Assembly: GCA_028710985.1 (NCBI GenBank)
Contig: JAQTTB010000001.1
Location: forward strand, 19,280-83,279
Length of the DNA: 64,000 nt
Direction: 5' to 3'
Origin: Patescibacteria group bacterium
GTDB lineage: Bacteria > Patescibacteriota > Patescibacteriia > JAHJFT01
Numbering within the stretch: the stretch's first letter is position 1; each line of letters begins with the position of its first letter. Both the position numbers and the translations under genes were made by a program. The notes beneath the pieces were generated by a model. That model saw only the letters and a program-made list of their open reading frames with translations. It made no database searches and was not told the DNA's origin. Positions 16,005 through 41,337 of this stretch are shown one piece after another.

Positions 16005-16033
16005 TTGACAAGGGCGGCTAATTCGGATAAAAT
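16005..16033 (+). promoter_or_regulatory. sigma70-type promoter of the flippase gene
   Basis: TTGACA (16005-16010), 17 nt, TAAAAT (16028-16033), 22 nt upstream of the ATG at 16055. Confidence 0.6.
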
Positions 16034-16054
16034 ATTGAATATTCATAAAGACCC

Positions 16055-17308
16055 ATGGAAATCAAATTAATAAAAATCGCTGAAAAATTTTTCAAAACCG
16101 ACATTAATTATTTAATTAAGGGCGGCTTTTGGCTTACTTCCGGGCAAATCCTTACTTCGCTGTCATCTCTAATTTTAGCAATCGCTTTTGCCAATTTGCT
16201 GGAAAGAGAATCTTATGGCACCTATAGATATATTCTTTCCGCAATCGGCATCATTTCGCTCTTTACTCTTCCGGGAATAAATACCTCTTTGATAAGATCG
16301 ATAGCGAATAATTTTTCCGGATCCTACCTGAAGGCAATTAAGACAAAGTTTAAATTTTCACTGATTGCCACTATAGCTTGCTTAATAGTCGGAATATATT
16401 ATTTTTATTGCCAAAATAATGAAATTGCCTTTTGTTTCTTTATTATTGCATCCATTATCCCTTTCAATAAATCATCCGAACTCTATTTGTCTGTACTGAA
16501 CGGCCAGAAAAGATTTAAACTCTATACTATTCTATATGCGAGTTCAAATATTATTGCAACGTTGTCAATAATCTTAACTTTATTTTTCACGGATAGTTTA
16601 GCGCTAATTTTAACGTCGTATTTCTTATCTTATACGATCCTGCAATTAATATTTTCTTTGTACGTAAAAAAATACCTAAACAACAATGAGGCTGATAATA
16701 CCGTTGAATATGGCATTCATTTGAGCATAATGGATGTAATCAAAACGATCGCCGGACATCTCGACAGGATACTCATATTCAACGCAATGGGACCGTTAGA
16801 GGTGGCTATTTACTCTTTTGCCGTTGTCCCGCATAGCCAGGCAAAAAGTTTCCTCGAAAATATTAAAGTCCTCGCTTTCCCCAAACTTAGCGCGTCCAAC
16901 GAGGAGGATATAAGAAAATTTTTACCAAAAAAAATTCTAAAAATGGAGCTCATAATCGCAATCTTGGTAATCATCTACATCTTCGCCGCTCCGACCCTAT
17001 TCCAAATATTTCTCCCGAAATACATGGATTCGGTCCTCTATTCCCAAGTGTACTTTATCTCGTTGATATTTTTCCCAAGAACAATTTTATCTACCGCAAT
17101 GACCGCAAAAATAAAAAAGAAAGAACTTTATTCCATAAGAATCCTCAGTCCAATACTAAGAATTATACTGATGGTCGTCGGATTAAAATTCTTTCAACTT
17201 TGGGGCGTACTCGTCGCGGGTATGGCGGCAAATGCGCTCATGATGTTAATCTACGGCTATTACTTTAAAAAAGCATTCAAGCAAATCACTTATCAATCAT
17301 CTCTCTAG
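16055..17308 (+). CDS. Wzx-like polysaccharide flippase (MOP superfamily)
   Basis: 417-aa ORF with ~12 TM helices and the typical N-terminal region (INYLIKGGFWLTSGQILTSLSSLILAIAFANLL). It is the first AT-rich gene of the island. Confidence 0.7.
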   Translation: MEIKLIKIAEKFFKTDINYLIKGGFWLTSGQILTSLSSLILAIAFANLLERESYGTYRYILSAIGIISLFTLPGINTSLIRSIANNFSGSYLKAIKTKFKFSLIATIACLIVGIYYFYCQNNEIAFCFFIIASIIPFNKSSELYLSVLNGQKRFKLYTILYASSNIIATLSIILTLFFTDSLALILTSYFLSYTILQLIFSLYVKKYLNNNEADNTVEYGIHLSIMDVIKTIAGHLDRILIFNAMGPLEVAIYSFAVVPHSQAKSFLENIKVLAFPKLSASNEEDIRKFLPKKILKMELIIAILVIIYIFAAPTLFQIFLPKYMDSVLYSQVYFISLIFFPRTILSTAMTAKIKKKELYSIRILSPILRIILMVVGLKFFQLWGVLVAGMAANALMMLIYGYYFKKAFKQITYQSSL

Positions 17309-18071
17309 AAAAAAGACTGTTGCGGGGATATATCAGCAAGATCTGAAATAGCAAATATACTATCGAAAAAATGATATATAGACCATACATCCATACTCCA
17401 TATCTAATATCGTACAAGCAAACCAATAATATCAATAAATACCATATCCATACGAAGTCGTAGATCATACTTACCGAATAGTTAAGAAATTTCATAAAAA
17501 CCTTTTTACCCGTAAAGAGGTTTTTATTATAATCCCTGAGGACATCCTGATGATTTTCAAGAGTAACTTTATATTTGATATGATGCCTCAACTTACCTAG
17601 CATTTTATAGTTAGTGAGCAATATGGAAAAAACAATGCTCGAAATTAATATCAGCATGTTCTGCGTAAGAACATAAAGAAAAACGCCCGTAGAAAAAGTC
17701 AAGGCAAACGGATAATAGAAATGAAATAATATCTCGTAATATATTCCCCTCTGAGTATAATGCTCACGATATCGGGCAATACCACCGTCTACCTTATCCA
17801 ACATTGATGATATTCTCATCAAAATAAGCTGGATAAAATATATCCAGAAAGGATCTACGGCAAATAACAGTAAATTAATAAAAAGGGAGATAATCAATAA
17901 CGCCACATTCAAAACGGACACGAAGTTGGGCGAAATTTTTGGAAAAATATTTAACAAAATAAATGTTATATACAAGGCCAGATAGCGTTCTGCGCGGTAT
18001 ATAATACCGCTCTTTTTTATTTTTTCCTGCTTGCCCAAGAAACATTTATCCCTCAGCTCAGAAAATGTCAT
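17286..18071 (-). CDS. polytopic membrane protein, CDP-alcohol phosphatidyltransferase-like with a degenerate motif
   Basis: 261-aa ORF. LDKVDGGIARYREHYTQRGIYYEILFH matches DG-x2-AR-x8-G, but the two terminal Asp residues are replaced (E, H). Its 3' end overlaps the convergent wzx-like gene by 23 nt. Confidence 0.4.
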   Translation of the reverse strand: MTFSELRDKCFLGKQEKIKKSGIIYRAERYLALYITFILLNIFPKISPNFVSVLNVALLIISLFINLLLFAVDPFWIYFIQLILMRISSMLDKVDGGIARYREHYTQRGIYYEILFHFYYPFALTFSTGVFLYVLTQNMLILISSIVFSILLTNYKMLGKLRHHIKYKVTLENHQDVLRDYNKNLFTGKKVFMKFLNYSVSMIYDFVWIWYLLILLVCLYDIRYGVWMYGLYIIFSIVYLLFQILLIYPRNSLFSREMIDK

Positions 18072-19177
18072 ATAAATTTAAATAATTTAATTAGTTTATC
18101 CGTCTGCTGTGATAAGGAAAAATTATCACGGACATGGGAAAATGCCGCCATCCCCATTTTATTTCTAGTTTCACTATCCAGCATTTTCTTTATAGCATTA
18201 CTGATTTGATCTTCATTGCCACGCTCAATAATAAACCCATTCACATTATCAAGCACTATCTTATTTATTCCCCCTACGGCAGTTGAAATAACCGGCAATC
18301 CACATGACATGGCCTCCAGTACGGCATTTGGACAACCCTCATTTTTAGAGTATAAAATAAAAATATCGGCCAATAGATACTGTTCTTTTAATTCCTCTCT
18401 ATCCAATAAACCGGTAAAAATAACTTTTTCTGCCAGCCCTAAATCAAGCGCAATTTTTTCGAAATGCTGCCGCAATTGACCCTCGCCGACGAGAACAAGT
18501 CTGGCGATAGGCAGACCCCGATCCACCATTTTTTTAAAAAAATAAATTAATTGTTCCTGGCCCTTGTTCTCATTTTTCATCGAGCCCACATTCAATAACG
18601 TTACCCGGTCAATTTTTTTACCTTTTCTTAATTCCCCCAATGCTCCTTCGGATATTTCAATTTCGACTCCATTATTAATAACAATCATCCGGTTTCGATA
18701 GAATGGCTGATACTTGACTAGGCTGTTCATTACTTCTTCTGAAACGGCGATTATCCTATAGCAACAAAAATTTAAAAAAACATCGATTATCCTTAAAAAC
18801 AAACTCTTTCGATCCGCCATCCCCGATTCTCGAATTAAAACCCTCAGCCTCGGATTAAAAATTTTCAAAAGTCTAGCAACGACGTTCGCCACATCTAGGG
18901 TAGAATAAACAAATTTTATATTGTTAGTTTTCACAAAAAGCAGGGTTCGATAAAATGATCTAACGTCAAATAAATACTTAAAATTAAAACTCACTACTTC
19001 ATTTTTTATTCGTAATTTGGAAACGAAGGTCTGTTCGGCGCGAAAAATCGTAGCAAAAAAAATATTAAATCCCTGCGCCGATAAATAGTTAGCCTGTTTT
19101 ATAAAATAAGTTTCGGCGCCGCCGACACCCAATCCGTTTATCAAAAGTAATATATTTTTAGTTGCAGATTCTTTCAT
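18068..19177 (-). CDS. glycosyltransferase, GT4-like
   Basis: 369-aa ORF: NGLGVGGAETYF...KNEGCPNAVLEAMSCGLPVISTAVGGINKIV. Confidence 0.85.
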   Translation of the reverse strand: MKESATKNILLLINGLGVGGAETYFIKQANYLSAQGFNIFFATIFRAEQTFVSKLRIKNEVVSFNFKYLFDVRSFYRTLLFVKTNNIKFVYSTLDVANVVARLLKIFNPRLRVLIRESGMADRKSLFLRIIDVFLNFCCYRIIAVSEEVMNSLVKYQPFYRNRMIVINNGVEIEISEGALGELRKGKKIDRVTLLNVGSMKNENKGQEQLIYFFKKMVDRGLPIARLVLVGEGQLRQHFEKIALDLGLAEKVIFTGLLDREELKEQYLLADIFILYSKNEGCPNAVLEAMSCGLPVISTAVGGINKIVLDNVNGFIIERGNEDQISNAIKKMLDSETRNKMGMAAFSHVRDNFSLSQQTDKLIKLFKFI

Positions 19178-19178
19178 A

Positions 19179-19847
19179 TCAGTTACACCGCACCACGGCC
19201 CATATTTCCCCCCAATTTATTTTGTAATCCGATATAGACATTCCGGCTGAATTCAGCTCTTCGGAAAAGTCATTAAAAGTATATTCAATAAAATGATTCC
19301 GATCCAATCGATATTCAAGTCCAAGCTCTTTTTTATACGGCACTAACCAATCCCGATTAATCATCGGCACGCGTATTAAAGCGATATCGCAAATATTTTT
19401 TATTTGCTTTAAAAGAGAAGTCCTATCATCTATATGCTCCAGTACATTAGATACTACGACGCGATCAAATTTTTCATTAAAACTATACTGTGTCGCATCG
19501 GCGACAATATATTCAACGTTTGGCAACGCGCAGTGCGATTTTGCATACTCAATACTGGTTTTATTCATATCAATCCCCACGACTCTTTTGGCCTTTTTGG
19601 CAATCTCGCGGGTCAAAATACCATTACCGCAGCCAATATCAAGGACGGTGTGCGATGGCTCGATATTATTTAGAAAAAAATCGTGATATTCAGTGAGGCG
19701 ATGCTTTGGATGTATCCCCCCCTCTCGCAATGAAGCGACCGTGACAATTTTATGCAATGCCCAATCGTGCAAATAAAATAATCGCCTCAGGATCCAGAGG
19801 GATAAATTTTTATTTTTAAACGCTCTTTTTAATAAATCCTTTAGCAT
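19179..19847 (-). CDS. class I SAM-dependent methyltransferase
   Basis: 222-aa ORF with motif I VLDIGCGNGILT, motif II VVGIDM, and VVVSNVLEHI. Confidence 0.8.
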   Translation of the reverse strand: MLKDLLKRAFKNKNLSLWILRRLFYLHDWALHKIVTVASLREGGIHPKHRLTEYHDFFLNNIEPSHTVLDIGCGNGILTREIAKKAKRVVGIDMNKTSIEYAKSHCALPNVEYIVADATQYSFNEKFDRVVVSNVLEHIDDRTSLLKQIKNICDIALIRVPMINRDWLVPYKKELGLEYRLDRNHFIEYTFNDFSEELNSAGMSISDYKINWGEIWAVVRCN

Positions 19848-20775
19848 ATTCTTTTAATGTGGAACTAATAATACTTTTTTTCTTTGAAAAAATCAGCATC
19901 TTTTCAAACAAATCATAAAAATGTTCCAATTCCTGTTCATTTTTCACATAAGGGCTTCCGCCGATCATCAGCTCGCTTGAATGCACCATAAAAACAGCTA
20001 CGGGAAAATTTTGTCTGAGTAAAGCTTCGAGCACAGACCTTATTTCATCAAAACTTGAGTTTGAGAATATCCTCAACCACCGCTGTTTAAAAAATAATTT
20101 ATTTAATACTTTTTTCAATAACGAATCCGGCAATAAAGCAAATGACCTAGAAATATATGAGGCCTCTCCAACGAAAGGTGAGGTAAACGCAACTGTCATC
20201 GGCACCTCCAATACCCCGTCCACTACCGAGGGCATCAGCGACGAACCGCGAAAATCCGGTCCCCGTCTATCGTGGCCGCCGGAAGAATTATTCTTCCATG
20301 ATATCTTTGGGGTTACCGAGCTGTCGGCGATATAGCCCAATTTATTCAAAAATCGCATTATCCGAATATCATAACCCCAGCGTCCGGCTCGATGAGTCTT
20401 TGGACTTATGCCAAAATTTTCCGCAATCGCCTTTGTTAAAGATGATAATTTTTTGTACAGCTCTTCGTCTTCAAGCTCATTAGGAAAACGATGCTTCAGC
20501 ATTTCCCATTCCCTGTCCTTCACACAAGGCGGTGTTGTCCAAGGATGCAAATGAGCCCCAACTTCCGCTGACCCGGAATCCTGAAAAGGCTTAAGAATAT
20601 TTACCGATTCTCTATCTACCGCAACCTCATAAGTTATAAAATATGTCGGTTTAAAGCGATATTTTTGGCAAAGCTCCTGGAAGCGAGGCAGAAATTTAAT
20701 ATTTTCAAGTGTAATTTCCTCAGATCTTTTCCACTGGTTGTCCGCCTCAACATCAACGGTTATTATTAATTTCAT
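19816..20775 (-). CDS. polysaccharide deacetylase-like (WalW/CE4-like) protein
   Basis: 319-aa ORF: MKLIITVDVEADNQW...VGAHLHPWTTPP...HRAGRWG. Recognised only by recollection of this family. Confidence 0.5.
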   Translation of the reverse strand: MKLIITVDVEADNQWKRSEEITLENIKFLPRFQELCQKYRFKPTYFITYEVAVDRESVNILKPFQDSGSAEVGAHLHPWTTPPCVKDREWEMLKHRFPNELEDEELYKKLSSLTKAIAENFGISPKTHRAGRWGYDIRIMRFLNKLGYIADSSVTPKISWKNNSSGGHDRRGPDFRGSSLMPSVVDGVLEVPMTVAFTSPFVGEASYISRSFALLPDSLLKKVLNKLFFKQRWLRIFSNSSFDEIRSVLEALLRQNFPVAVFMVHSSELMIGGSPYVKNEQELEHFYDLFEKMLIFSKKKSIISSTLKEYAKGFIKKSV

Positions 20776-22406
20776 ACATTTTTAAAACCCCTGATTCGCA
20801 TCCAATATTTGATAACGCTTGAATACACCTTGTAATAATAGTAACATTGTTTTCTTTCACCGCCAAATGCTTCCTTGAATTCAGCGATTGACCTGAGCCC
20901 CCTCTGATTTGAATCCGGACTTATGCCGCCTAAGTCAAAAATTTCATGATCCGTTAATTTCGCGTATCGAATTGCCTCCCAAACGATCATCCGATTTGCC
21001 TGCCCCACAATCTCGCACTGCTGGCTATCGGAAAAACGCAGTGAGGAAAGAGCCCAAGCACGAATATTCCTAGTATCGCTGATAAAAATACCGCCGGCGA
21101 TCATTTCGTTTTTATAATAAGCGGAAAAAAGTAAGCCGTTTTCTAGATAATGGTTGACTCTTTCGATGGGCAAACCTTTTTCTGAGCGAAAAATACTATA
21201 AATTCTTCTAAATTCCTTATGATTTAGGTCATTTTTTACGATAATCCCATTTCTTTCCCCTCTTTGAATCTGTTTACAGATATAATTTTTCCTCATCTTG
21301 CTCCAAATCGTTTCAATGCTCTGTCTTAAATCAATTACCGTGGTTAAACCCGCTCGTTTATGAAAATCTGGCTTATCAATATTGTGATAGGAAAAAAAAT
21401 TGATCATTCCAACGCCTGGAATGTCTTGCGGATCCTCAAACCATCGCCAGCACTTTTTTAAAAAATTAGTGTCAAATAAACCATAGCAAATCCGGCTAGA
21501 AATTACCGGCTTATGCGCCTTTATTAATATAAGATGTGAAAAACCTCTGATTATCGGCAAGTGTTCAGCGAGGCGAAAAAGCGTTGGATAAATTTTTTTT
21601 AAAAAACCCATCCTCTGTTCAAACGGAAGCGCTATGTCAATGAAACTAACATTGTCGATAAAAAAATTTTTGTTAAATAAATTTATTATATCTTTCGCGG
21701 AAAAATAATAATAATAAATACCCGAAGGATGAACTCCCTCTTTTGGTAATTTCTTTAATCTCCTCCTTAAATCAAGATGATACGCCGATAAAATCAACGG
21801 CTTGCCCGGCGCAAGGGTGAAATTAATGTTTTGGAGAAACTGATTACGATACGCATCGGATGGCAAATGCTCTAAGACTTGGGCAGAGAAAGCAATATCA
21901 AAAAAACCTTTTGCTGTTTTAAACGACGTTACGTCAGCCCAGACCAAACCAACATTATTGGATTTTAATTTGCACGAAAGTATCTCCAGCGAATTAAACG
22001 AGATATCCACCCCCAATAAACAACTATAATCAACAAATTCCTCTGTAAAACGACCTGTTCCGCAGCCATACTCAATTATTTTTTTTCCCGATACGTCGCC
22101 GACTTGCGCAAGCGTTGAGGGAATTTCCCTATCATGCCTCGCAGACAATCTAGCGTCATAACCGCCAGCTTGCGCATCTCTAACGGCTATCTCAGAACCT
22201 ATTTTTTCATCATTGACCGTCTGCTCCGGCAATATAAACAAAATCCCATTTTTAATTTGATATGCTTTCCCACAACGAACGCATTTTAGAAAACCATTAA
22301 ATATTGCCTCGTCATTGCCGCTTTCCATGCCACCAATTTCAAGACGAGCGTTATCAGATTGACAGACCAGGCAAGCAATAAGTTTTTTCGAAAATCCTAT
22401 CCTCAT
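20772..22406 (-). CDS. three-domain fusion: Trm112-like zinc ribbon + SAM methyltransferase + FemAB/GNAT(Acetyltransf_6)-like domain
   Basis: 544 aa. CLVCQS...CVRCGKAYQIKNGILFILPE (zinc ribbon). IIEYGCGTGRFTEEF...FDIAFSAQVLEHL (methyltransferase). The C-terminal ~200 aa read IRAWALSS...QANRMIVWEAIRYAK...DLGGISPD...GLRSIAEFKEAFGG (FemAB-like). Confidence 0.6.
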   Translation of the reverse strand: MRIGFSKKLIACLVCQSDNARLEIGGMESGNDEAIFNGFLKCVRCGKAYQIKNGILFILPEQTVNDEKIGSEIAVRDAQAGGYDARLSARHDREIPSTLAQVGDVSGKKIIEYGCGTGRFTEEFVDYSCLLGVDISFNSLEILSCKLKSNNVGLVWADVTSFKTAKGFFDIAFSAQVLEHLPSDAYRNQFLQNINFTLAPGKPLILSAYHLDLRRRLKKLPKEGVHPSGIYYYYFSAKDIINLFNKNFFIDNVSFIDIALPFEQRMGFLKKIYPTLFRLAEHLPIIRGFSHLILIKAHKPVISSRICYGLFDTNFLKKCWRWFEDPQDIPGVGMINFFSYHNIDKPDFHKRAGLTTVIDLRQSIETIWSKMRKNYICKQIQRGERNGIIVKNDLNHKEFRRIYSIFRSEKGLPIERVNHYLENGLLFSAYYKNEMIAGGIFISDTRNIRAWALSSLRFSDSQQCEIVGQANRMIVWEAIRYAKLTDHEIFDLGGISPDSNQRGLRSIAEFKEAFGGERKQCYYYYKVYSSVIKYWMRIRGFKNV

Positions 22407-22408
22407 AT

Positions 22409-23521
22409 TTATCCTAAAATCTTCATTAAATCATTATAAAACCGATCGGGGTTATACTGATTCTTTATCAATTCAAAGCCGGCATTTCCCATTTTTATTA
22501 AGTTGTGCTGATCCGAAATAGTCAGGCGAATCTTATCTATTAAATCGACCAAATTTTTACTTTCAAAGATGTAACCATTCACGCCATTCTCAATATATTC
22601 CTTCGTTCCATTTTCGCTCGAACTAATAACCGCCAGTTTGCAACTCATTGCTTCAACTATCGAAAAAGCCGCGGCTTCACCATAGCTCGGTAAAATGAAT
22701 ACATCATTTACTTTATATTCTTCATAAACATCCTTCCAATTAATATCAAATTTCACCTTCACAATTTCCGATAAATTATTAACTTTAATGTACTCTAATA
22801 ATTCATTTGTATATTCATTCTCATCCCTTTCGCCGACTAATGTAAGATTAATATTAAAATTATCTTTTAATTTTTCAACGGCCTTAACTAATAAAATCTG
22901 ATTCTTGCGCTCTTGGAATTTACCTACGCAGATAATATTAACCCATCCGCCAATAAAATACTCCTTGTTGAAGTCAAGCGCTTCATGAACAAATGGAATA
23001 TAAAAAAGATTCTTATTCTTACTTGCATAAGCGTCGTTACCCCTCAATGGAGTAATTACCGACGCCTTCCACAAAAAACCAACCAGCCAAATCGAGAAAC
23101 TCTTGATTTTTTTTCTAAATTTTTCAATTTGAATTAAAAAAATAATTTTTTTAACACCCAGGAACCGACTTAGAAGCGCGCCAAGGATTGAATAAAGACT
23201 ATCAATATTTTTTATCAGCACAACGTTCGGCCGATATTCCTTTATCAAATGATATAGTGAAAATATGGGTGGATAGCTATATCGTATCTCGAACCGATTC
23301 TTAATTGTGCGTCCACCCCGCTTATTGAATATTCTATTAAATAGCTTAAAAATATTCGAATATCCAACAACTCGCGGTTCTAGAATATCATAGCATTCTG
23401 ATTTTCCGCGATACATAACAAACATGGCCACTTCGTGTCCAAATGACTGAAGGGCCTCAATCATGTAGAAAAAATTTGTATGATATCGCGGGGTAAGAAA
23501 TAAAAATTTCATTGATTTCAA
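22409..23521 (-). CDS. glycosyltransferase, GT4-like
   Basis: 370-aa ORF: YGEAAAFSIVEAMSCKLAVISSSENGTKEYI. Confidence 0.8.
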   Translation of the reverse strand: MKSMKFLFLTPRYHTNFFYMIEALQSFGHEVAMFVMYRGKSECYDILEPRVVGYSNIFKLFNRIFNKRGGRTIKNRFEIRYSYPPIFSLYHLIKEYRPNVVLIKNIDSLYSILGALLSRFLGVKKIIFLIQIEKFRKKIKSFSIWLVGFLWKASVITPLRGNDAYASKNKNLFYIPFVHEALDFNKEYFIGGWVNIICVGKFQERKNQILLVKAVEKLKDNFNINLTLVGERDENEYTNELLEYIKVNNLSEIVKVKFDINWKDVYEEYKVNDVFILPSYGEAAAFSIVEAMSCKLAVISSSENGTKEYIENGVNGYIFESKNLVDLIDKIRLTISDQHNLIKMGNAGFELIKNQYNPDRFYNDLMKILG

Positions 23522-25191: not shown

Positions 25192-25192
25192 T

Positions 25193-26981: not shown

Positions 26982-27080
26982 ATTTTTTTATAATCCACCG
27001 GAAACTGCTTCTCATAAATTGGCAATAAATAATCAAATTTTCCCCACTGATATCCGAATCTCTCTTCAGAACCCATACAT

Positions 27081-33418: not shown

Positions 33419-33430
33419 ATTTTATGAAAA

Positions 33431-34159: not shown

Positions 34160-34166
34160 AACTTTA

Positions 34167-35237
34167 TTAAATATTCTTATCTGGATAAAAATTATCCATC
34201 AAACGCTCAATTAAAAAATCCAAACTATGCTCGCGGATTATAATTTCTCTCAATCCCTTGCCTAACGCCACCCGCCTGTCTACATCCATAGTCAATAAAT
34301 TTATCAATTTATTCTTAAAATCATTCACGTCATCCTCCTCAAAAACCATCGGCTCAGGCAAAACATCCTTTAGCGCCCTATTTGATACCAGCACCGGCAT
34401 TTCACAGGCCATGGCTTCAAAAATTGTCTTATCCATGCTCCCGCTCTGTGTAAAATTAACATAAAGCGCGTGTTGGTTATAAATGTTCGATGTCTCACGA
34501 TATGGCACGCCAGGATAAAAAGAAAGCATTCCTGCGCCCTCCAGCTCCTTGCCCGCTCCCCTGACTCTTTGATAATATTCCGCATCGGAATCGGTCGGAT
34601 CGCCATAGATACTCGCCGTAAAGCCAATTCCTTGGCCATGCAGATCAGACAAAGCGTTAACAAACATTTCGACTTTCTTAACTGGCGATATTCTCCCCAG
34701 AAACAATACGGATTTTTCATATTTCGCCGATGGATCGAAACCTTTAAATATATCTGTGTCGATCCCAACGGGCATAATCCTTGCTTTTTTATACCGCGAG
34801 CAAAACGAATTTGGTGAAGTGTAGAATACGTTATTGGAAAATAAGACGCCAAACCTAGTTATGATATTACCAATCTTGTGATTGTGCCATAGAAAAATTT
34901 TTTTATTAAAAATTCTCCACAATATACCGGCCATAACAATATATTCCGGATTCATATGGACAAAAATAACGTCGTAATCCCTAATTAGAAAAATAATATT
35001 TTTATAAAATTCGATAATATAGCCAACCCGACTCTTCCTTTTTTCCTTTTCCAGGGATATAACTCGCACATTGTTTGGCAAATTATATTTTCCTGACTCT
35101 AGACAAACTACGTTAACAGTATCAAACGATGGGCTAATCTTCATAATCCAGTTATGAAAAAATCCAAGCACTTTATCGTCCCTGTCAACCTTCTGAGTAA
35201 TAATTAGCAGATTTATTTTTTTATCGCCTTGTCCCAT
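34167..35237 (-). CDS. glycosyltransferase, GT-B fold (GT4/GT1-like)
   Basis: 356-aa ORF: LGRISPVKKVEMF...SGSMDKTIFEAMACEMPVLVSN. Confidence 0.75.
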   Translation of the reverse strand: MGQGDKKINLLIITQKVDRDDKVLGFFHNWIMKISPSFDTVNVVCLESGKYNLPNNVRVISLEKEKRKSRVGYIIEFYKNIIFLIRDYDVIFVHMNPEYIVMAGILWRIFNKKIFLWHNHKIGNIITRFGVLFSNNVFYTSPNSFCSRYKKARIMPVGIDTDIFKGFDPSAKYEKSVLFLGRISPVKKVEMFVNALSDLHGQGIGFTASIYGDPTDSDAEYYQRVRGAGKELEGAGMLSFYPGVPYRETSNIYNQHALYVNFTQSGSMDKTIFEAMACEMPVLVSNRALKDVLPEPMVFEEDDVNDFKNKLINLLTMDVDRRVALGKGLREIIIREHSLDFLIERLMDNFYPDKNI

Positions 35238-36337
35238 GTTTCGTTATAAAGTTTTAATGTCGCCTCCTTGCCCGGAAGTCGCTCTAACGCGTTCTTGGCA
35301 TTTTGACTAAACTTCATTTTTAATTCAGGGTTATTCTTTACTTTGACCAATGCGTCAGAAATCGCACTTATATTATTTACCGGGACCACGATACCATTCT
35401 CATAGTTTTTTACCACCTCTCCGGCGCAACCGACGTCGGTCATGATAACTGCGCAGCTGCAAGCCAGGGATTCAATAGCCACCCTGCTCCATCCTTCGTA
35501 TTCAGAGGTCAATAAAACACAATCCGCTCCCTTAAAAAAACTCACAACGTCCTGGGTCCAGGGAATGAAAATCACCGATTCACCCAAGCCCAATTCGCCT
35601 ACCAATCTTTTTAATTCTTTTTCCTGACTCCCCTCGCCAACAATGAGCAAGCCGCTCTTAGGACTTTTTTTTAAGAACATTAAAAATGCTTTTAAGGCAA
35701 CGTCTATTCTTTTTACCCTCTCCAATCGCCCCATAACCAGAGCGATAAAATCAAATTGTGAATATTTTTCCTTTAGATTAAAATCCGGCTCCTTTAATTC
35801 CAGACTTTTCCAAGGTGTGCAAATCGGCAGAACCGTTATCTTTTCTTGATTAATCCCTCTCTTGATTAAGTCCCGCTTGATTCTCTGACTAACCGCTCTG
35901 ATAGAATCGGCCTTTTTTATAATTCCCAAGCCAAGATACCATCGTAGATTGTTCAAAAAATTTTCTCCGCGCCAATGAGGATTACTAAAAAAATCGCCAT
36001 GGAGTTGAATATTCAAACCTAAACCGAATTTTCTTTTAGCGAAATATCCGATTAACCCGATGGCAAACGGGTCTTGAACCGAAACGACATTAATATTGCT
36101 GCGCTTAATAATGCTGGCTGCTTCCCTCCACAATTTTAACCAGCCAAAAAATTTATTATTAACTCCCACGGATCGTACGAATACGTTGTCGGTTAATTGT
36201 ATATTCGTGCTACAACCAGCCGGCAGCAAAATATAAAATTTATTACCAATAAAATTGGCGTAACTCTTAAATCTCTCCTGTGTCTCGCTACCCGACTTTA
36301 AAATTCTTGCATCGGTGCCAATTATCAAAATGTTCAT
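35213..36337 (-). CDS. glycosyltransferase, GT4-like
   Basis: 374-aa ORF: EYEGWSRVAIESLACSCAVIMTDVGCAGEVV. Confidence 0.8.
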   Translation of the reverse strand: MNILIIGTDARILKSGSETQERFKSYANFIGNKFYILLPAGCSTNIQLTDNVFVRSVGVNNKFFGWLKLWREAASIIKRSNINVVSVQDPFAIGLIGYFAKRKFGLGLNIQLHGDFFSNPHWRGENFLNNLRWYLGLGIIKKADSIRAVSQRIKRDLIKRGINQEKITVLPICTPWKSLELKEPDFNLKEKYSQFDFIALVMGRLERVKRIDVALKAFLMFLKKSPKSGLLIVGEGSQEKELKRLVGELGLGESVIFIPWTQDVVSFFKGADCVLLTSEYEGWSRVAIESLACSCAVIMTDVGCAGEVVKNYENGIVVPVNNISAISDALVKVKNNPELKMKFSQNAKNALERLPGKEATLKLYNETWDKAIKK

Positions 36338-37338
36338 TTCAGCTTCAAATTAATTGCTTTAATTATCGGCTTATTGGCAATGCTGCAGTTTTTGCATACC
36401 GGCAATTCCTGCTCAATGACTGCTCTTCTGATTTTTGCGTATTTATCGCTCTGCCAAATTTTATTAAAACTTCTTTCTTCAAAAACATTACCAACCACGA
36501 TGCTCCCCTCAAGATCGGTGCAGCATACACCCACATCACCGTTCCAAAGTATCACACTGCGCCAAATCCAGGGGCATGTCTTTGGCTTATCTATATTCAC
36601 GAGTCTACCCTCCTTCAGGCGATAGCGACTATTTTTTAAATCCGTTGGCAGAAACTCCAAGGCATTTGCTAGAAGCTTTTCCTGAAGTTCGGCCGTTGAC
36701 CCGATATTGAAAGAAGCGCTTTTAAACCACAGGGCGTCAACTCCGAGCTTGCGGCCCAAATCCTCAATCGCTCCCATCTCACGCTCATTGAACTTCATTA
36801 CCAAGAATTGAATAATAATCCTTGTCTTGCGGTTTTTGATGCCCGCTATCTGCCGCAGGGTTCCAACTATTTTATTAAAATCGCTATTGACACGATATTT
36901 CTGCTGCGTCTCGGCCGATGCTCCGTCCATGGCAAAAATCAAATTATCAATTCCATAGCCGACCGCCTCGCGATACCTTTCAACCGGCATGGTCCCATTA
37001 GTACTAACTGTCAATATATAACCGTGGTCTTTGAGATACTTCACCATCGCCGGAAACTCAGGATTGGCGAATGATTCGCCGGAAAAGTGCAAAGTAATTT
37101 TTTTGATGCTCCTGGGCAAATAACTTTCTATTTCCTCGAGCTGTTTCAAGGTTAAAAATCCTCTCGGCTTGGTTGACGTTCTCTGAATGCAAAACGGACA
37201 ACGCAAATTACAAAAACTCGAGGCCTCAATAATTATTTCTTTAAGCGGCCTAACCCTCCGAATCCAGGCATCTGGAAGCAATAACAGCGCTCTGTTGAAC
37301 AGAGTCGATTTACTTATTTTATCTTTCAGCCAATACAT
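36334..37338 (-). CDS. radical SAM enzyme with C-terminal SPASM-type Cys cluster
   Basis: 334-aa ORF: SSFCNLRCPFCIQ (CxxxCxxC). C-terminal CPWIWRSVILWNGDVGVCCTD...LPVCKNCS. Confidence 0.85.
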   Translation of the reverse strand: MYWLKDKISKSTLFNRALLLLPDAWIRRVRPLKEIIIEASSFCNLRCPFCIQRTSTKPRGFLTLKQLEEIESYLPRSIKKITLHFSGESFANPEFPAMVKYLKDHGYILTVSTNGTMPVERYREAVGYGIDNLIFAMDGASAETQQKYRVNSDFNKIVGTLRQIAGIKNRKTRIIIQFLVMKFNEREMGAIEDLGRKLGVDALWFKSASFNIGSTAELQEKLLANALEFLPTDLKNSRYRLKEGRLVNIDKPKTCPWIWRSVILWNGDVGVCCTDLEGSIVVGNVFEERSFNKIWQSDKYAKIRRAVIEQELPVCKNCSIANKPIIKAINLKLK

Positions 37339-38449
37339 ATCGTTTTATTATATTCAGGGTATCGGTCGCCGTATCTTTCCACGTGCGGTTTAATTCACCT
37401 TCTTTTATATCTGGACAAATTCTTTCATAATCAGATTCCTCGGCCAAACGAGCAATGTCTTTTTTTATTTCTTCGCGATCCATTGGATTAGTCAAAGTGG
37501 ATCTACCTTCAAAAATTTCTTCCATACCATTATCCCTGGTAATAATCAGGGGTTTCCCGAGTTTCATGCATTCCATGCCAAAATTCGGGCTGATTTCCGA
37601 AAACGAAGGCAGGATGCAGGCATAGGCCAATTTTATCCTTTCAATAACCCCTTGATGCGGAATGCCGTCAAATATTTTTATATATTCATCTGACCGGCTC
37701 TCTCGAACAATTCGTTTTAAATTATCTTTTTCGGGACCATCGCCATAAACACTCAAAAAAATCTTTTTTCCCTCGGTACGAAGCTCGACAAAAATTTTAA
37801 TTAAATCAGCCAGATTTTTTAATTTTATCAATCTGCCAGCAAATAAAAATATTTTATCCGGTTCAGCGTAACTCAATGACTGCCCTTTTAAAATCTGAGG
37901 GAATGGATTTAAAATAACGCTGCTCTTGGCCTCAATGAAAGGAAATACTTTCAAATAAATATTTCTCTGAAAATCGGTAGAAAAAATAATATGGGAACTG
38001 CGTGTTAAAACCAATTTAATAAGACGAAAGGCCATGCCACGCGTATATAAGTTTCTGCCGTAATATTCCGATAGCGTAACCCTTTGGCCGGATTCAGCCG
38101 CTTTCTCCCAAAGATAATCTCCACCGAGACGCAAAAATATTTTTTTTCTTAAATATACATTGGCAATTGCGGTTGGCAAACCAGCGCTCAATATATCAAA
38201 TGTATAAATGAGATCCGCCTTTCGTCCGTGTCGCAAGACATTAATAAAAAAGGTGAAATATCTAATATAAACACACGGCTTTCTTGAAACACCGTGGATT
38301 CTCATCCCCTCCACCGCATTTGGCTGGCCATATGTAATTATTTCGATCTCATGGCCTAATTTTTTTAGCTCCGCAGATAAATTTTCTACATACGTTGCTG
38401 GCCCGCCAATATCCGGTGGAAATATGCCCGTTGTGATCAATATCTTCAT
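37319..38449 (-). CDS. glycosyltransferase, GT4-like
   Basis: 376-aa ORF: MKILITTGIFPPDIGGPATYV...FSEISPNFGMECMKLGKPLIITRDNG. Confidence 0.8.
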   Translation of the reverse strand: MKILITTGIFPPDIGGPATYVENLSAELKKLGHEIEIITYGQPNAVEGMRIHGVSRKPCVYIRYFTFFINVLRHGRKADLIYTFDILSAGLPTAIANVYLRKKIFLRLGGDYLWEKAAESGQRVTLSEYYGRNLYTRGMAFRLIKLVLTRSSHIIFSTDFQRNIYLKVFPFIEAKSSVILNPFPQILKGQSLSYAEPDKIFLFAGRLIKLKNLADLIKIFVELRTEGKKIFLSVYGDGPEKDNLKRIVRESRSDEYIKIFDGIPHQGVIERIKLAYACILPSFSEISPNFGMECMKLGKPLIITRDNGMEEIFEGRSTLTNPMDREEIKKDIARLAEESDYERICPDIKEGELNRTWKDTATDTLNIIKRYVLAER

Positions 38450-39558
38450 TTTAAATATTTATCATATTCCCCGCTCACTTGCCGAACAACCTTATCCCAG
38501 TTGAATCTTCCCAACCCCTGAAAAGCATTATTTCTTAATCGTTCGCGCAGTTCCTGGTCGCTAAGAAGACGCTTTATGGCCGCAGCGATGGCTTCCGAAT
38601 CTCGCGGCGCAATTAAAAGCCCGGTTTGATTATCGGAAATAACATCCGGAATTCCGCCGACTCGCGTTCCTATAACTGGCGCCCCGCACGCCTGGGCTTC
38701 AATAAAGACAATACCTAAACCCTCAGCGAGCGATGGACAAATAAATATTTGAGCCTTGCCCATCTCCCTAAGTGTCTCTTCGTGCGGCAGTTTACCCAAG
38801 AGCGTAACCCTGCTCCCCAAATTCAATTCCTTTATCATCCGCTCAATTTCCTGTCTTTTATTTCCCTCCCCAACCATAACCAAATGAGCATTGGGAAATT
38901 CTTGAAAAACCGAGGGCAACGATTTTATTAAATAATCCAATCCTTTTTCCCAGGAGAGTCGCGCCACGCAGACGATTCTTCCCGGGATCGGTTCGGCCTG
39001 ACTTTGTTTTGCCAGCTCAAGGTCAACCCCATTCGGAATAATTACAACCTTGCCCTGATCGGTCCTCAATTTCTTCGCGCGTTCAGCAAGCGACGAGCTA
39101 ATCGCAGTTACAAGATCGGGCGTAGAGTGAATTCTTTTCCAAAGAAATGCGGGAATTTTCTTGCTCGGATCGTCCAGATCGCCGCTTTGTAAAGTCAGGA
39201 TTGTTGTAATTTTTTTATTAAAAATTGAAAAAAGCCACAACGCGATGCCGGCATAGCTCTCCATAACTGCATGAACCAAGTCCGGCTTTAATTTTTTGGC
39301 TAAAATTACAGCAAAAATCGGATACAGCCATTTATCAAAAGAACTGCCGATTCCAACGCGGTAGTACTTAAACTTGTCCCGCTGTTCAAATTTTGGCAGT
39401 TTCTTATCTAATCGAGCGCTGATGATTGTAAAATCATATTCTCCAGCCAGCCGTTCAACCACTTCTTTCACAAACATCTCCGCACCGCTGATAAATGGGT
39501 CGTAAAAGCAAGAAAAAATTACAATTTTTTTTTGTCCATTCATTCTATAAAAAATCAC
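38446..39558 (-). CDS. glycosyltransferase, GT4-like
   Basis: 370-aa ORF (GTG at 39558; alternative ATG at 39543, MNGQKK): LAEGLGIVFIEAQACGAPVIGTRVGGIPDVI. Confidence 0.85.
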   Translation of the reverse strand: MIFYRMNGQKKIVIFSCFYDPFISGAEMFVKEVVERLAGEYDFTIISARLDKKLPKFEQRDKFKYYRVGIGSSFDKWLYPIFAVILAKKLKPDLVHAVMESYAGIALWLFSIFNKKITTILTLQSGDLDDPSKKIPAFLWKRIHSTPDLVTAISSSLAERAKKLRTDQGKVVIIPNGVDLELAKQSQAEPIPGRIVCVARLSWEKGLDYLIKSLPSVFQEFPNAHLVMVGEGNKRQEIERMIKELNLGSRVTLLGKLPHEETLREMGKAQIFICPSLAEGLGIVFIEAQACGAPVIGTRVGGIPDVISDNQTGLLIAPRDSEAIAAAIKRLLSDQELRERLRNNAFQGLGRFNWDKVVRQVSGEYDKYLK

Positions 39559-40265
39559 TTAATTACTTTTTCCTGAATTGAACTATATTGACTACTCTTC
39601 AAAGCCTCCAGCCCCTTCATTTCGTTCTCCAGTCTTTTTATCATTTCCGGATGGGCATAGGCCTTATCAATTAACTCTTTCCATCGAGGCTCCTGCTCGA
39701 TTAATACATCTTCCGCGGAAATGAAATCCACGTCGACATCGCTATATATTGGATTGTCTTTCTGAAACTTTTTACAAAAAGCTTCCGATCTCGGAACATG
39801 ATAAGCATTCGTAACGATTAAAATATGGTTCCAAAAATTTTCCTTTGCTATCCTGAATAGTTCTTCAAAATTCTGCTTGGTATTTTTGGAAACTTTTTCA
39901 ACAAAAATCGATTCTTCCGGTATTCCTCTTCCCACTAACTCTTTTTTCATCAACTCACTTTCCTCCGGCGTCTCCGGTGGCTCGCTTTCAAGATAGTTAG
40001 GCTTTCCAGTGACAGTCAAAACGTTCTTTGCCGTGTCGCCCTTTTTAAAGAGATACTCCGTGGCAATAACTCTAATCCGGCCACCTAAGGCGCCGAATGC
40101 ATCGCCTTCGGAATAGGCCGTCGTGCGCCATCCGAATTTTTCATGCTTTCTCATTGCGCCACTCAACGTGATAATGGCGTCATAGCGATATTTATTTTCC
40201 TTTTCAACGTTAGTCTCATCAAATATTTCGCCGGTCACCGATGAGACTCCTTCGGATAATGGCAT
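39555..40265 (-). CDS. DUF218 (YdcF/ElyC/SanA-like) domain protein
   Basis: 236-aa ORF: AIITLSGAMRKHE...ILIVTNAYHVPRSEAF. Confidence 0.65.
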   Translation of the reverse strand: MPLSEGVSSVTGEIFDETNVEKENKYRYDAIITLSGAMRKHEKFGWRTTAYSEGDAFGALGGRIRVIATEYLFKKGDTAKNVLTVTGKPNYLESEPPETPEESELMKKELVGRGIPEESIFVEKVSKNTKQNFEELFRIAKENFWNHILIVTNAYHVPRSEAFCKKFQKDNPIYSDVDVDFISAEDVLIEQEPRWKELIDKAYAHPEMIKRLENEMKGLEALKSSQYSSIQEKVIK

Positions 40266-40267
40266 AT

Positions 40268-41254
40268 CTATGTTGCCGAATTATTATAGATACTTTTATA
40301 CCACTCATAAGTACGCCGCAATCCTTCGTCCAGTCCGACTTGCGGCAAGAAATCCAAAAGTTCCTTCATGCGCGTTACATCCGGACAGCGATAACGGATA
40401 TCAGCCCTTTTTCCTTCAACGAACACGGGTTGAAGATCTTCACGGCCCGAAATTTTGATAATCTTTTCCGCCAAATCCAATATCGTGGTCTGCCGACCCA
40501 TTCCAATATTTATAACCTGACCATTTGTCTTTTCCGTAAGAAGCGCCCGAACTTGTGATTCAATATTATCATCAATATAAATAAAATCACGCGTCATCAT
40601 ACCATCACCATAAACTGTGGGCGATTTACCATCCAAAACCTGACGGATAAACACTCCGGTTACAAATCCATAGGCCGAGGACTCTTGGCGCGGTCCGTAA
40701 ACATTAAAGAAGCGCAGGGCTGTGGCCGGCAGATTAAACTTATCGTTATATCCTAAAAACATATTCTCACCAATTAGCTTGGTCAATGCGTAAGTATCGC
40801 GCGAACGCGGATTATGCACTCCGTCCTCTTTCTCCGGCAAAGTCACCGGCTCACCATAAGCTTCGGATGACGATGAAAAAACAATCTTCTTAACACCCTT
40901 AATGAGCGACAACTCCAAAATATTTTTATATCCATCGATATCACGAAGCGGCAAAAGCGGATTTTCTTGAACTCGCTTCACTCCGACCACGGCTGCTAAA
41001 TGAAAAACATAATCAATCGGATTCATCAAAAAAACATCCCTGAGTTCTTCGTAGACGCAAACATCGCCTTCAATGAATTTAAAATTCGGATTTTCGCGAA
41101 AACTAGAAAAATTTTCCAGTTTGCCCGTGCTCAAATCGTCAATAACTATTACCTTAGCTCCTTCACGGAGCAAGCGATCCGTCAAGTGTGAACCCACGAA
41201 CCCGGCCCCGCCGGTCACAAGAACACTCTTGTCTTTTAGTTGAGAATAGTCCAT
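40268..41254 (-). CDS. NAD-dependent nucleotide-sugar epimerase/dehydratase; first gene of the long minus-strand operon
   Basis: 328-aa ORF: VLVTGGAGFVGSHLTDRLL, SSSSEAYG, YALTKLIGE. Confidence 0.85.
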   Translation of the reverse strand: MDYSQLKDKSVLVTGGAGFVGSHLTDRLLREGAKVIVIDDLSTGKLENFSSFRENPNFKFIEGDVCVYEELRDVFLMNPIDYVFHLAAVVGVKRVQENPLLPLRDIDGYKNILELSLIKGVKKIVFSSSSEAYGEPVTLPEKEDGVHNPRSRDTYALTKLIGENMFLGYNDKFNLPATALRFFNVYGPRQESSAYGFVTGVFIRQVLDGKSPTVYGDGMMTRDFIYIDDNIESQVRALLTEKTNGQVINIGMGRQTTILDLAEKIIKISGREDLQPVFVEGKRADIRYRCPDVTRMKELLDFLPQVGLDEGLRRTYEWYKSIYNNSAT

Positions 41255-41302
41255 ATTTTGAGTAGAATTAGCTGTTTTATTGACTTGAAATTAATATAAC
41301 AT

Positions 41303-41337
41303 TAGACTATTATATATATATTGAGTATAATCGTCAA
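41303..41337. promoter_or_regulatory. overlapping divergent sigma70-type promoters
   Basis: Minus strand: TTGACG (41337-41332), 17 nt, TATAAT (41314-41309), facing the 22-gene glycan operon. Plus strand: TAGACT (41303-41308), 17 nt, TATAAT (41326-41331), facing the four-helix-bundle gene. Confidence 0.55.

Follow-up and report, generated by a model that had tools for sequence, protein, structure and literature searches.

A lineage-variable, AT-rich gene cassette predicted at the centre of a large surface-glycan locus in a Patescibacteria genome

Gene clusters of the O-antigen rfb type occupy a conserved slot between conserved flanks, and their low-GC, serotype-specific centre carries its own Wzx and is subject to recombination in the flanks. 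The cps loci of Streptococcus pneumoniae and the S-layer glycan (slg) loci have a conserved 5' part and a variable, lower-GC centre in one long operon, and a Wzy_C-type oligosaccharyl:protein transferase is encoded next to slg clusters. The hypervariable region (HVR) of SAR11 exemplifies the hypervariable glycan 'metagenomic islands' of streamlined free-living bacteria, and PEP-CTERM/XrtA exopolysaccharide loci encode a TIGR03108 amidotransferase together with a TIGR03019 FemAB protein. A stretch of 64,000 nucleotides (hereafter, the window, to which all positions refer) from a Patescibacteria group bacterium, a member of the candidate phyla radiation (CPR), was analysed here (assembly GCA_028710985.1, contig JAQTTB010000001.1, positions 19,280 to 83,279). 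It contains an AT-rich block of 22 minus-strand genes between 17286 and 41254, which a preliminary description had likened to the low-GC, horizontally exchanged centre of O-antigen or capsule loci. Our analysis indicates that this block is probably the main part of a lineage-variable central cassette (approximately 14994-41396, 26.4 kb) in a very large surface-glycan locus that adjoins rpsB-tsf and has conserved arms.

The left anchor of the comparison was the Bac_transf gene (13614-14993, plus strand), which encodes a WbaP-like priming polyprenyl-phosphate glycosylphosphotransferase (PF02397, E 7e-62; 459 amino acids (aa) in the NCBI version, P0056). A scan of the GTDB genomes with Bac_transf gave only relatives of at most 46% identity, and the siblings were reached via the protein database and a JGI metagenome scan. 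The right arm was found in locus L033 by a metagenome scan with an alignment of the Wzy_C/TPR protein described below, in which there were more than 560 related loci. In the closest relatives found, the identities were 62-70% for Bac_transf and 59-63% for Wzy_C/TPR. The left arm of the window consists of rpsB, tsf, a gene for a 698-aa protein with 15 transmembrane (TM) helices, two family 4 glycosyltransferase (GT4) genes, two family 2 glycosyltransferase (GT2) genes, an epimerase gene, GtrA and Bac_transf. The sibling left arm showed the same order (PsbP-like, tsf, rpsB, 698-aa protein, GT4, GT4, GT2, GT2, epimerase, GtrA and Bac_transf) with 50-80% identity.

The right anchor is a four-helix protein of the 23S rRNA-intervening-sequence type (IVP; 41397-41789, plus strand, PF05635), whose gene is divergent from the block. 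It is followed by a conserved GT4 gene (41855-43021, plus strand, Pfam; 59-61% identity in the siblings) and by the Wzy_C/TPR gene (43417-45660, minus strand, Pfam), the product of which joins a Wzy_C membrane domain of the WaaL/O-oligosaccharyltransferase type to C-terminal TPR repeats. The remainder of the window right arm comprises an S8 peptidase, a 1259-aa protein, an extracytoplasmic function (ECF) sigma/anti-sigma pair, further GT4s and large FG-GAP/DUF11 proteins. The order IVP, GT4, Wzy_C/TPR, S8 peptidase, 1259-aa protein, anti-sigma/sigma and GT4 was the same in the sibling right arm, with 48-73% identity. The individual values in L033 were 61% (IVP), 59% (GT4 at 41855), 63% (Wzy_C/TPR), 59% (S8 peptidase), 64% (1259-aa protein), 48% (anti-sigma), 68% (sigma factor) and 73% (GT4 at 54075). 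The 64-kb window as a whole is envelope-related, and judged from its genes the AT-rich block is the middle of a much larger glycan locus.

Between these arms, the siblings carried different genes. Directly past Bac_transf, the sibling encoded adenosine 5'-phosphosulfate (APS) kinase, ATP sulfurylase, a CysQ-like phosphatase, several sulfotransferases, methyltransferases, a Wzx (37-38% identity to that of the window) and GT4s. In L033, the identity past IVP fell to 34%, 33%, 33% and 44% for the epimerase and three GT4s; after these came a GT4 without a close window counterpart, then a methyltransferase and a sulfotransferase. L033 and L029 overlap with 100% identity over 2553 bp and therefore represent one sibling genome, which gives both arms and the cassette. 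The sibling cassette from Bac_transf to IVP is approximately 15.6 kb long, compared with 26.4 kb in the window (14994-41396), and comprises genes for 3'-phosphoadenosine 5'-phosphosulfate (PAPS) synthesis, sulfotransferases, methyltransferases, Wzx and GT4s. Approximately 17 of the 24 window cassette genes had no counterpart in it, and distant counterparts (33-44%) were found for the epimerase, the three GT4s and Wzx only. Thus the centre had been replaced and the flanks conserved (48-80% identity in the arms), as the preliminary description had anticipated, and the possibility that the block is conserved and syntenic in all relatives did not hold for the siblings. The likeness to an exchanged O-antigen or capsule centre is supported by this comparison.

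Judged by synteny, the variable unit is 14994-41396, and its left boundary at 14994 lies about 1 kb outside the compositional boundary. It thus includes a gene for an NAD-dependent sugar epimerase/dehydratase of flank-like composition (15039-15956, minus strand, Pfam; GC 0.479). This gene is assigned to the variable unit because it is absent from the siblings at that position; its product showed 27% identity to a different sibling epimerase and 55-60% identity to epimerases in other CPR loci. In a second sibling lineage (L031, 6583-9417), genes for a pyridoxal-dependent decarboxylase and an amino-acid permease were inserted between the epimerase and GtrA genes of the otherwise conserved left arm, indicating that the arms are not completely static.

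The gene layout and composition of the block were then computed. Exactly 22 consecutive minus-strand open reading frames (ORFs) were listed between 17286 and 41254. From the 17286 end, the successive gaps are -4, 1, -32, -4, 2, -4, -32, 4, 99, 6, -53, 17, -1, 12, 7, -25, -4, -20, -4, -4 and 2 nt; all lie between -53 and +17 nt except the 99-nt gap at 26982-27080, so that the layout of 22 co-directional genes with a single exception was confirmed. The G+C content is 0.378 for 16055-41254, compared with 0.496 for both 1-14993 and 41855-64000. The mean per-gene GC is 0.377 for 23 island genes and 0.494 for 27 flank genes (Mann-Whitney p ~4e-9), and the mean GC at third codon positions (GC3) is 0.389 and 0.552, respectively (p ~2e-9). 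Codon choice differs as well, with values for island and flank genes of 0.30 and 0.09 for Leu TTA and of 0.14 and 0.40 for Arg CGC. The estimate by eye of a low-GC block between flanks of about one-half G+C therefore agrees with the computed values, and GC is not uniform across the window. The left compositional step is as sharp as had been described, GC falling from 0.479 in the epimerase gene at 15039-15956 to 0.356 in the flippase gene at 16055-17308. The right edge is graded (GC 0.42-0.44 over 38446-41789).

Searches against Pfam and NCBIfam identified 6 GT4 (GT-B) genes, 2 GT2 genes and 6 methyltransferase domains in 5 genes in the block. Further content includes an AsnB-like protein, a radical SAM/SPASM enzyme, GtrA, DUF218, a weak deacetylase match, a FemAB-like C-terminal domain and two large polytopic proteins. 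The earlier count of two GT2 transferases was correct, whereas that of seven GT-B transferases has to be reduced to six, the seventh GT4 (41855-43021) being on the opposite strand and outside the block. The methyltransferases, AsnB, radical SAM/SPASM, GtrA and DUF218 of the earlier inventory were recovered; a CDP-alcohol-phosphotransferase-like protein (17286-18071) and the epimerase at 40268-41254 had been left out of it.

The promoter proposed for the block, TTGACG-17-TATAAT (41337-41309, minus strand), was present in the 142-nt space between the first block gene and the divergent gene. In a hexamer scan of 26-44 kb, it was the sole match of 11 of 12 positions. The scan as a whole was at background (59 sites, compared with 50 +/- 7 expected), so that the match alone proves little. 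However, both hexamers, their spacing and the 5' leader to the start codon were kept between the window and L033, and the spacer had diverged. This pattern supports a functional promoter and places it in the conserved right arm; the block promoter thus appears to belong to the conserved flank. Promoter-like and terminator-like sites inside the block were at background level only. The tight gene spacing and the sibling-conserved promoter are consistent with a single 24-kb transcript from about 41300 to 17286. At the left edge, an inverted-repeat search revealed a putative hairpin terminator with a 13-bp stem (15003-15034, minus strand) between the convergent Bac_transf and epimerase genes, which marks the left synteny breakpoint of the variable unit. 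A promoter-like site, TTGACA-17-TAAAAT (16005-16033, plus strand; 11/12 matches), precedes the flippase gene, and the epimerase gene at 15039-15956 has its own promoter-like site at 16011-15983. Three transcription units are therefore predicted in the variable unit: the epimerase gene at 15039, the Wzx gene and the 22-gene block.

Like O-antigen clusters, the window has a conserved slot, a low-GC centre with glycosyltransferase, sugar-modifying and Wzx genes, and a promoter region that is conserved ahead of the variable genes; a priming polyprenyl-phosphate transferase and a Wzy_C protein of the WaaL family are encoded as well. The priming transferase and the Wzx flippase expected of a Wzx/Wzy pathway are both present by Pfam (Bac_transf at 13614-14993 and Polysacc_synt at 16055-17308). 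No Wzz/PCP domain was detected in any ORF scanned, and the sole Wzy_C-domain protein (43417-45660) matches WaaL (7tpg). On the other hand, the priming enzyme and the Wzy_C protein of the window lie in the conserved arms, the latter carries TPR repeats, no Wzy or Wzz is recognisable in the window, and the cassette contains two GT-C-type proteins and a FemX-type fusion. Furthermore, the host is a member of the Patescibacteria, with no lipopolysaccharide (LPS) or outer membrane indicated; this lineage is regarded as lacking LPS. Because the organism is a CPR bacterium, 'O-antigen' is used here as an analogy only.

The resemblance to cps and slg loci lies in the monoderm-type context, the variable low-GC centre and the one long, predicted co-directional operon, and to slg clusters also in the Wzy_C-type protein and in the large secreted proteins (1259 aa, S8/FG-GAP, DUF11) that adjoin the locus. 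Unlike in cps loci, CpsA/LCP, the CpsBCD tyrosine-kinase system and an ABC exporter were not found in the window, and a protein target is only predicted. AsnB-like, FemAB-like and deacetylase-like proteins occur together with many GT4s as in PEP-CTERM/XrtA loci, but the window proteins score far under the equivalog cut-offs (472 vs 817 bits for TIGR03108 and 17 vs 260 bits for TIGR03019), and no exosortase or PEP-CTERM proteins were seen. Like the SAR11 HVR, the locus would represent a large, low-GC, lineage-variable glycan island at a conserved position in a small genome; it differs in that the genome is that of an ultra-small CPR bacterium, that sulfated and methylated/amidated types are resolved between sibling lineages, and that no within-population variation was seen. 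A literature search on surface-glycan islands, sulfotransferases and O-antigen ligases of CPR/Patescibacteria found nothing pertinent in the collection searched. Since the window has conserved arms, a replaced centre of low GC, a Wzx and a priming enzyme and lacks the features of a pneumococcal-type capsule, the safe label is 'variable surface-glycan cassette', rather than O-antigen or capsule.

Other CPR loci were reached via homologues of a Trm112-methyltransferase-FemX fusion protein encoded in the block, in three genomes. In distant CPR genomes, sub-modules of the window recurred in the same order with 30-51% identity. L023 had, in the window order, GtrA, AsnB (51%), GT2, methyltransferases, a GT-C protein (42%), GT4 (45%), the fusion (45%), a 319-aa protein (47%), a methyltransferase (50%), GT4 (40%), a CDP-alcohol-transferase-like protein (35%) and a convergent Wzx (43%), after which a Wzy_C/TPR gene followed. 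The promoter-proximal GT4 series was found in the same order, at 29-46% identity, in L025 (Magasanikbacteria), L022 and L036; in L025 and L036 it stood beside a divergent GT4 gene and a Wzy_C/TPR gene, the GT4 having 36-45% identity to that at 41855 and the same relative position. The loci of L036 and L005 likewise adjoin rpsB-tsf. No counterpart of the radical SAM/SPASM enzyme, the DUF218 protein, the second GT-C protein, the methyltransferase at 33431 or the double methyltransferase was present in the related loci fetched. By this comparison, the window cassette is a composite of modules circulating or persisting across Patescibacteria, a reshuffled lineage-wide set and not a free-for-all.

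The replacement of cassettes within a conserved locus is the interpretation that we consider likely. Because mobility features are absent and the breakpoints lie at gene boundaries of the conserved arms, cassette exchange would occur by homologous recombination in these arms, without mobility genes, and would result in alternative 'glycotypes', methylated/amidated in the window and sulfated in the sibling. Several points weigh against this interpretation. Only two sibling lineages were examined, the search for a donor gave nothing above about 50% identity, and the source samples showed no sign of other cassettes existing side by side with this one. The sibling cassettes are AT-rich relative to their own arms (0.31-0.37 vs 0.43-0.50); as these non-homologous cassettes share the property, low GC seems to characterise the cassette pool and does not date a recent transfer. 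In the window, we recognised neither a canonical Wzy polymerase nor Wzz, an LCP ligase or export machinery, so that any fate assigned to the flipped glycan is tentative. Every enzymatic step is deduced from families or folds. The deacetylase match of the 319-aa protein is marginal (24.5 vs 23.1 bits), with no support for a deacetylase among PDB entries, and the protein at 17286-18071 contains DKVDGGIAR, but the G...D...D half of the CDP-alcohol phosphotransferase signature is replaced.

An ancient CPR glycan locus that was inherited vertically and without horizontal exchange, with low GC as a local compositional or selective bias (due, for instance, to low expression or to the amino-acid usage of membrane proteins) and sibling differences arising by gradual in-situ gain and loss, would also explain why distant CPR genomes share sub-modules (30-51% identity) in the window order, why the locus adjoins rpsB-tsf in L005 and L036 also, why sibling cassettes of different content are AT-rich too, why mobility genes and att-like repeats are lacking, and why the order of the promoter-proximal epimerase and GT4 series is kept in the sibling. 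We regard this as unlikely, because identity falls abruptly at the right edge from about 60% (IVP and GT4 41855) to 33-44% at the first cassette gene and at the left edge from 63-70% (Bac_transf) to no homologue; because approximately 17 genes occur in one genome only and a complete PAPS and sulfotransferase set only in the other; and because GC3 and synonymous codon choice differ beyond amino-acid usage. The sharp GC step at the left edge and the AT-richness of the block relative to the host could be taken as signs of a site-specifically integrated mobile genomic island carrying glycan genes. Such an island is very improbable: no integrase, transposase or relaxase domain was detected in any ORF scanned, the slot holds a functionally analogous cassette in the siblings, and the promoter belongs to the conserved flank. 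Neither a tRNA gene, an Rfam family nor flanking direct repeats were found in the window, and an integrative island was rejected on these grounds. It is even harder to credit that a low-GC contig of another organism was joined to higher-GC flanks by an assembly or binning error, which the large composition contrast and the fragmentation of the public Logan contigs (ending at 13514/13515 and 43080 in two samples each) might suggest. Independent Logan assemblies of three runs (SRR22315506, SRR22315508 and SRR22315509) agree with the window at 100% identity and extend across the two compositional junctions (spanning 13515-25956, 31855-43080 and 40601-43080), the contig ends fall at a 7-nt tandem repeat and at palindromes, away from the GC steps, and the same architecture exists in the sibling genome. 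Co-existing strains were also considered as the cause of these contig ends and were rejected on the basis of the repeat and palindrome positions and the lack of alternative junctions in the flank contigs; the ends are taken as breaks in the assembly.

As sequence searches gave nothing, the two large polytopic proteins were resolved by structure prediction only. The 568-aa protein (23518-25224, minus strand) had no match in Pfam, NCBIfam or a phmmer search of the PDB, nor did a profile of five sequences match the PDB. An AlphaFold2 (AF2) model built with 16 homologues (pLDDT 83.9, pTM 0.86) shows approximately 10 TM helices and a C-terminal outer domain. A Foldseek search with this model returned GT-C enzymes only (DPY19, PglB, AftA, ArnT and EmbB; probability 1.0, TM-score ~0.46). 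An acidic residue is conserved in outer loop 1 of GT-C enzymes; here, D48 (SSDxW), located after TM1, is nearly invariant in the family, homologues of which were found with 41-52% identity in Parcubacteria and Vogelbacteria. According to the model, the 568-aa protein is a membrane glycosyltransferase of the GT-C fold, belonging to a family without a Pfam model. The public annotation of 23518-25224 has a 312-aa product (P0052, PHW53_00200), whereas the frame in the window encodes 568 aa from a TTG start; because this frame is open and the homologues are 550-564 aa long, the protein is probably under-annotated in the metagenome-assembled genome. The second polytopic protein (31754-33418, minus strand; 554 aa, at least 9 TM helices) could be aligned from end to end with the 568-aa protein and the homologues of the latter (20-22% identity) and shares the C-terminal domain, which points to a second paralogue of the same GT-C family. 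No homologue of it was found in any fetched locus.

Each GT-C gene adjoins a GT2 gene whose product has C-terminal TM helices by Pfam and TM scan, and the GtrA gene lies between the two pairs. The GT2 next to the 568-aa protein (25193-26050, minus strand) has one such helix and is probably a polyprenyl-phosphate sugar synthase that feeds the adjacent GT-C; the other (30801-31754, minus strand) is GtrB-like with two. The GtrA-like small membrane protein (28920-29399, minus strand; PF04138, four TM helices) would take part in lipid-linked sugar translocation. GtrA, a TM-anchored GT2 and a GT-C are encoded together in Gtr-type three-component systems, as they are here, where the activities are putative. 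Systems for extracytoplasmic glycosylation that consist of a polyprenyl-phosphate synthase, a flippase and a GT-C with a C-terminal outer domain have been described (PMC11127046), and the window GT-Cs resemble them in having such a domain and in the side-by-side arrangement of the genes. In contrast to the three-component systems, the window GT-C family has no Pfam model or PDB sequence match, two paralogues are present, each with its own GT2, and both are inside the predicted main biosynthetic operon and not in a phage or accessory locus. The 698-aa protein of the left arm (4975-7071, plus strand; ~15 TM helices), encoded beside rpsB, had no match in Pfam or NCBIfam and shows 64% identity to a protein at the same position in the sibling. 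It was considered as a GT-C relative and rejected (hhalign probability 3%); it is a candidate polymerase or another transferase.

The gene at 20772-22406 (minus strand) encodes the 544-aa protein that had been described as a FemAB-like fusion. Its sequence matches were weak (TIGR03019 with E 0.0018, and PDB 9wqw with E 0.0017). The AF2 model (pLDDT 89.9) and Foldseek resolved it into a Trm112-like zinc ribbon, a class I methyltransferase and a FemX-fold domain (double GNAT), and on this model the 'FemAB fusion' is a Trm112-methyltransferase-FemX-fold protein. The middle domain matched the Trm112-activated methyltransferase 6f5z and phosphoethanolamine-type methyltransferases. The C-terminal domain matched the aminoacyl-tRNA-dependent synthases Sbb17/Sba18 (E 5.6e-14) and also FemX, the best structural match being Sbb17 bound to the amino sugar compound streptothrisamine. 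The pair F510-K511 is invariant and corresponds to the Phe-Lys pair highlighted in the active site of DhpH-C (PMC12945691). The fold and this pair liken the domain to FemABX transferases that act on amino sugars (Orf11/Sbb17, streptothricin-type; PMC12945691). Unlike Orf11/Sbb17, the window domain shares its polypeptide with a Trm112-like ribbon and a methyltransferase and is encoded within a polysaccharide cluster, and its tRNA dependence and substrate are only predicted. In other metagenomic proteins (P0021-P0023, P0029, P0031, P0033 and P0036; ~610-650 aa), the FemX-like C-terminal domain of the fusion is found with 47-58% identity fused to GT4, indicating that it pairs with different glycan enzymes.

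The 319-aa polysaccharide-deacetylase-like protein (19816-20775, minus strand; PF01522, 24.5 bits at a cut-off of 23.1) is encoded directly downstream of the fusion gene, also in L022, L023 and L025 (39-47% identity). Given this adjacent deacetylase-like gene, a free sugar amine is a plausible acceptor for the fusion protein. The gene upstream of the fusion gene encodes a GT4 (22409-23521, minus strand, Pfam; 45% identity in L023).

The remaining block genes, all on the minus strand and assigned by Pfam, are dominated by transferases. At the promoter-distal end, the product of 17286-18071 is a divergent membrane protein that resembles CDP-alcohol phosphotransferases (23 bits, cut-off 22; E 0.19 with PDB 4o6m), with a homologue of 35% identity at the same position in L023. 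The full signature of this family (PF01066) is D(x)2DG(x)2AR(x)n G(x)3D(x)3D. Because the signature is incomplete and the scores are weak, the protein is called 'like' and not a member of PF01066; it may add a phospho-alcohol substituent. It is followed by a GT4 (18068-19177; 40% identity in L023) and a class I S-adenosylmethionine (SAM) methyltransferase (19179-19847; 50% in L023). Further upstream are a class I methyltransferase with a Cys-rich N-terminal region (26055-26981), an AsnB-like glutamine-dependent amidotransferase (27081-28913; Asn_synthase, E 3e-94; 51% in L023; 472 bits with TIGR03108, under the cut-off of 817), a protein with methyltransferase domains in two stretches (29347-30783) and a class I methyltransferase (33431-34159).

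The promoter-proximal series comprises two GT4s (34167-35237 and 35213-36337; 34-44% identity and the same order in L022, L025, L033 and L036), a radical SAM/SPASM enzyme inserted in the GT4 series (36334-37338), two further GT4s (37319-38449 and 38446-39558; 29-46% identity and the same order in L025, L033 and L036), a DUF218 protein (39555-40265; PF02698) and, as the first block gene, an NAD-dependent sugar epimerase/dehydratase (40268-41254; 34% identity to the first gene of the sibling). The radical SAM enzyme (Radical_SAM and SPASM) has the CX3CX2C motif CNLRCPFC at residues 43-50. It reached no equivalog-level family in NCBIfam; the nearest solved sequences, with weak E-values of ~1e-4, are BtrN and cytosylglucuronate decarboxylase, which act on carbohydrates, and the enzyme probably modifies a sugar. 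On the plus strand, convergent with the 22-gene block, lies the cassette-specific flippase gene of the Wzx type (Polysacc_synt, PF01943; 16055-17308), with 43% identity in L023.

Taken as a pathway, these genes suggest that the conserved WbaP-like transferase would prime undecaprenyl phosphate, and that an oligosaccharide would be assembled at the cytoplasmic side by the six cassette GT4s, with the two epimerase/dehydratases and the radical SAM enzyme adjusting the sugars that are used. The glycan would be decorated by the five methyltransferases (six domains), by AsnB-type carboxylate amidation and possibly by a phospho-alcohol. The conserved triad of GT4, Trm112-methyltransferase-FemX and deacetylase-like proteins may add an amino sugar, free its amine, aminoacylate it and methylate it. 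The cassette's own Wzx would then flip the lipid-linked glycan, and the two GT-Cs would add side sugars outside the membrane from polyprenyl-phosphate donors made by the two TM-anchored GT2s, with GtrA helping translocation. In a profile search, the Wzy_C domain of the Wzy_C/TPR protein matched WaaL (7tpg, E 3.6e-10), and the TPR part was similar to TPRs of the protein-binding kind, for example those of OGT; the protein is predicted to perform the transfer or ligation step. The acceptor that would finally receive the product from this protein is most likely a surface protein; alternatively, the product may grow as a polymer. The methylated and amidated glycan proposed in the preliminary description fits the domain content.

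The 99-nt gap within the block is filled by an ORF (26981-27076, minus strand) that reads MGSEERFGYQWGKFDYLLPIYEKQF... and corresponds to the first ~31 codons of a different methyltransferase gene. A stretch of 25 residues of the peptide is 68% identical to the N-terminal end of P0180, a class I methyltransferase (library-wide E 3e-4), and the sequence, including an A7 run, is identical in two independent assemblies. It looks like the relic of a deleted gene. A change from A7 to A8 would fuse the ORF (33 codons) to the downstream methyltransferase, and a frameshift or phase variation was therefore considered. It was rejected as the main explanation, because the best homologue of the 308-aa methyltransferase aligns from residue 11 without an extension, because A7 is the same in both assemblies, and because the peptide fits a different methyltransferase type (P0180).

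In the left arm, 7.7 copies of a 7-nt tandem repeat, AGATTTG, lie at 13491-13543, a short distance before Bac_transf and within the opening codons of the GtrA ORF of the flank. In two samples, the public assembly is interrupted exactly at this repeat (13514/13515), which could be a slipped-strand switch or a mere assembly obstacle. Many tandem repeats of 7-8 nt in 3-8 copies lie in or near intergenic parts of the conserved arms, beside glycan genes (4899-4972, 9091-9125, 9453-9582, 13084-13114, 53967-54064 and 63805-63860); hardly any repeats of this kind occur in the AT-rich cassette. The 395-nt spacer between convergent genes at 43022-43416 contains a perfect 20-nt palindrome, CCTGCCTGCCGGCAGGCAGG, and several GC-rich hairpins, GGATTCCCGCCTTCGCGGGAATGAC. 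It had no Rfam family match, and assemblies from two samples end within it at 43080.

The genes at 45662-61574 encode very large secreted or anchored proteins (a 1259-aa protein without a family, S8 peptidase/FG-GAP, DUF11 and GHL15/FG-GAP), among which is the ECF sigma factor with a DUF5667 anti-sigma factor. The part from the S8 peptidase through sigma/anti-sigma is conserved in the sibling (L033, 1-9950); DUF11 and GHL15 lie beyond the stretch compared. These proteins are candidates for glycan acceptors or for a co-regulated surface module. An ORF at 55488-56699 (plus strand) has a strikingly high GC of 0.61 and a GC3 of 0.74 and is overlapped by a 232-aa ORF on the opposite strand; searches gave neither a family for it nor, among the fetched loci, a homologue.

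CPR bacteria have genomes of less than 1 Mb and live attached to host cells, and to our knowledge almost nothing is known of their surface chemistry. Approximately 64 kb of a 744-kb contig is given over to envelope-glycan genes here, and the central 15-26 kb is swapped between sibling lineages, suggesting that the 'glycotype' logic of O-antigens and capsules operates in the CPR radiation too. The principle is already well known; what is new is the ultra-small CPR setting, the glycotype contrast between siblings, the unmodelled GT-C family and the FemX fusion. The conserved arms (for PCR and read recruitment), the conserved promoter, the GT-C family without a Pfam model and the widespread Trm112-methyltransferase-FemX fusion provide handles for work on uncultivated bacteria, on their recognition of hosts, the pressure from phages and the enzymology of their glycans. 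Tentatively, and with considerable doubt, the locus may represent an rpsB-tsf-linked, cassette-switching system of protein O-glycosylation in CPR bacteria, in which the Wzy_C/TPR protein decorates the neighbouring giant surface proteins or pili with glycans specific to each lineage, sulfated in one and methylated, amidated and aminoacylated in another, and which involves a novel tRNA-dependent aminoacylation with N-methylation of an amino sugar by the Trm112-methyltransferase-FemX fusion and the addition of side chains by a new GT-C family. If this is true, such glycotypes would be prime candidates for determinants of host-attachment specificity and phage susceptibility in episymbionts.

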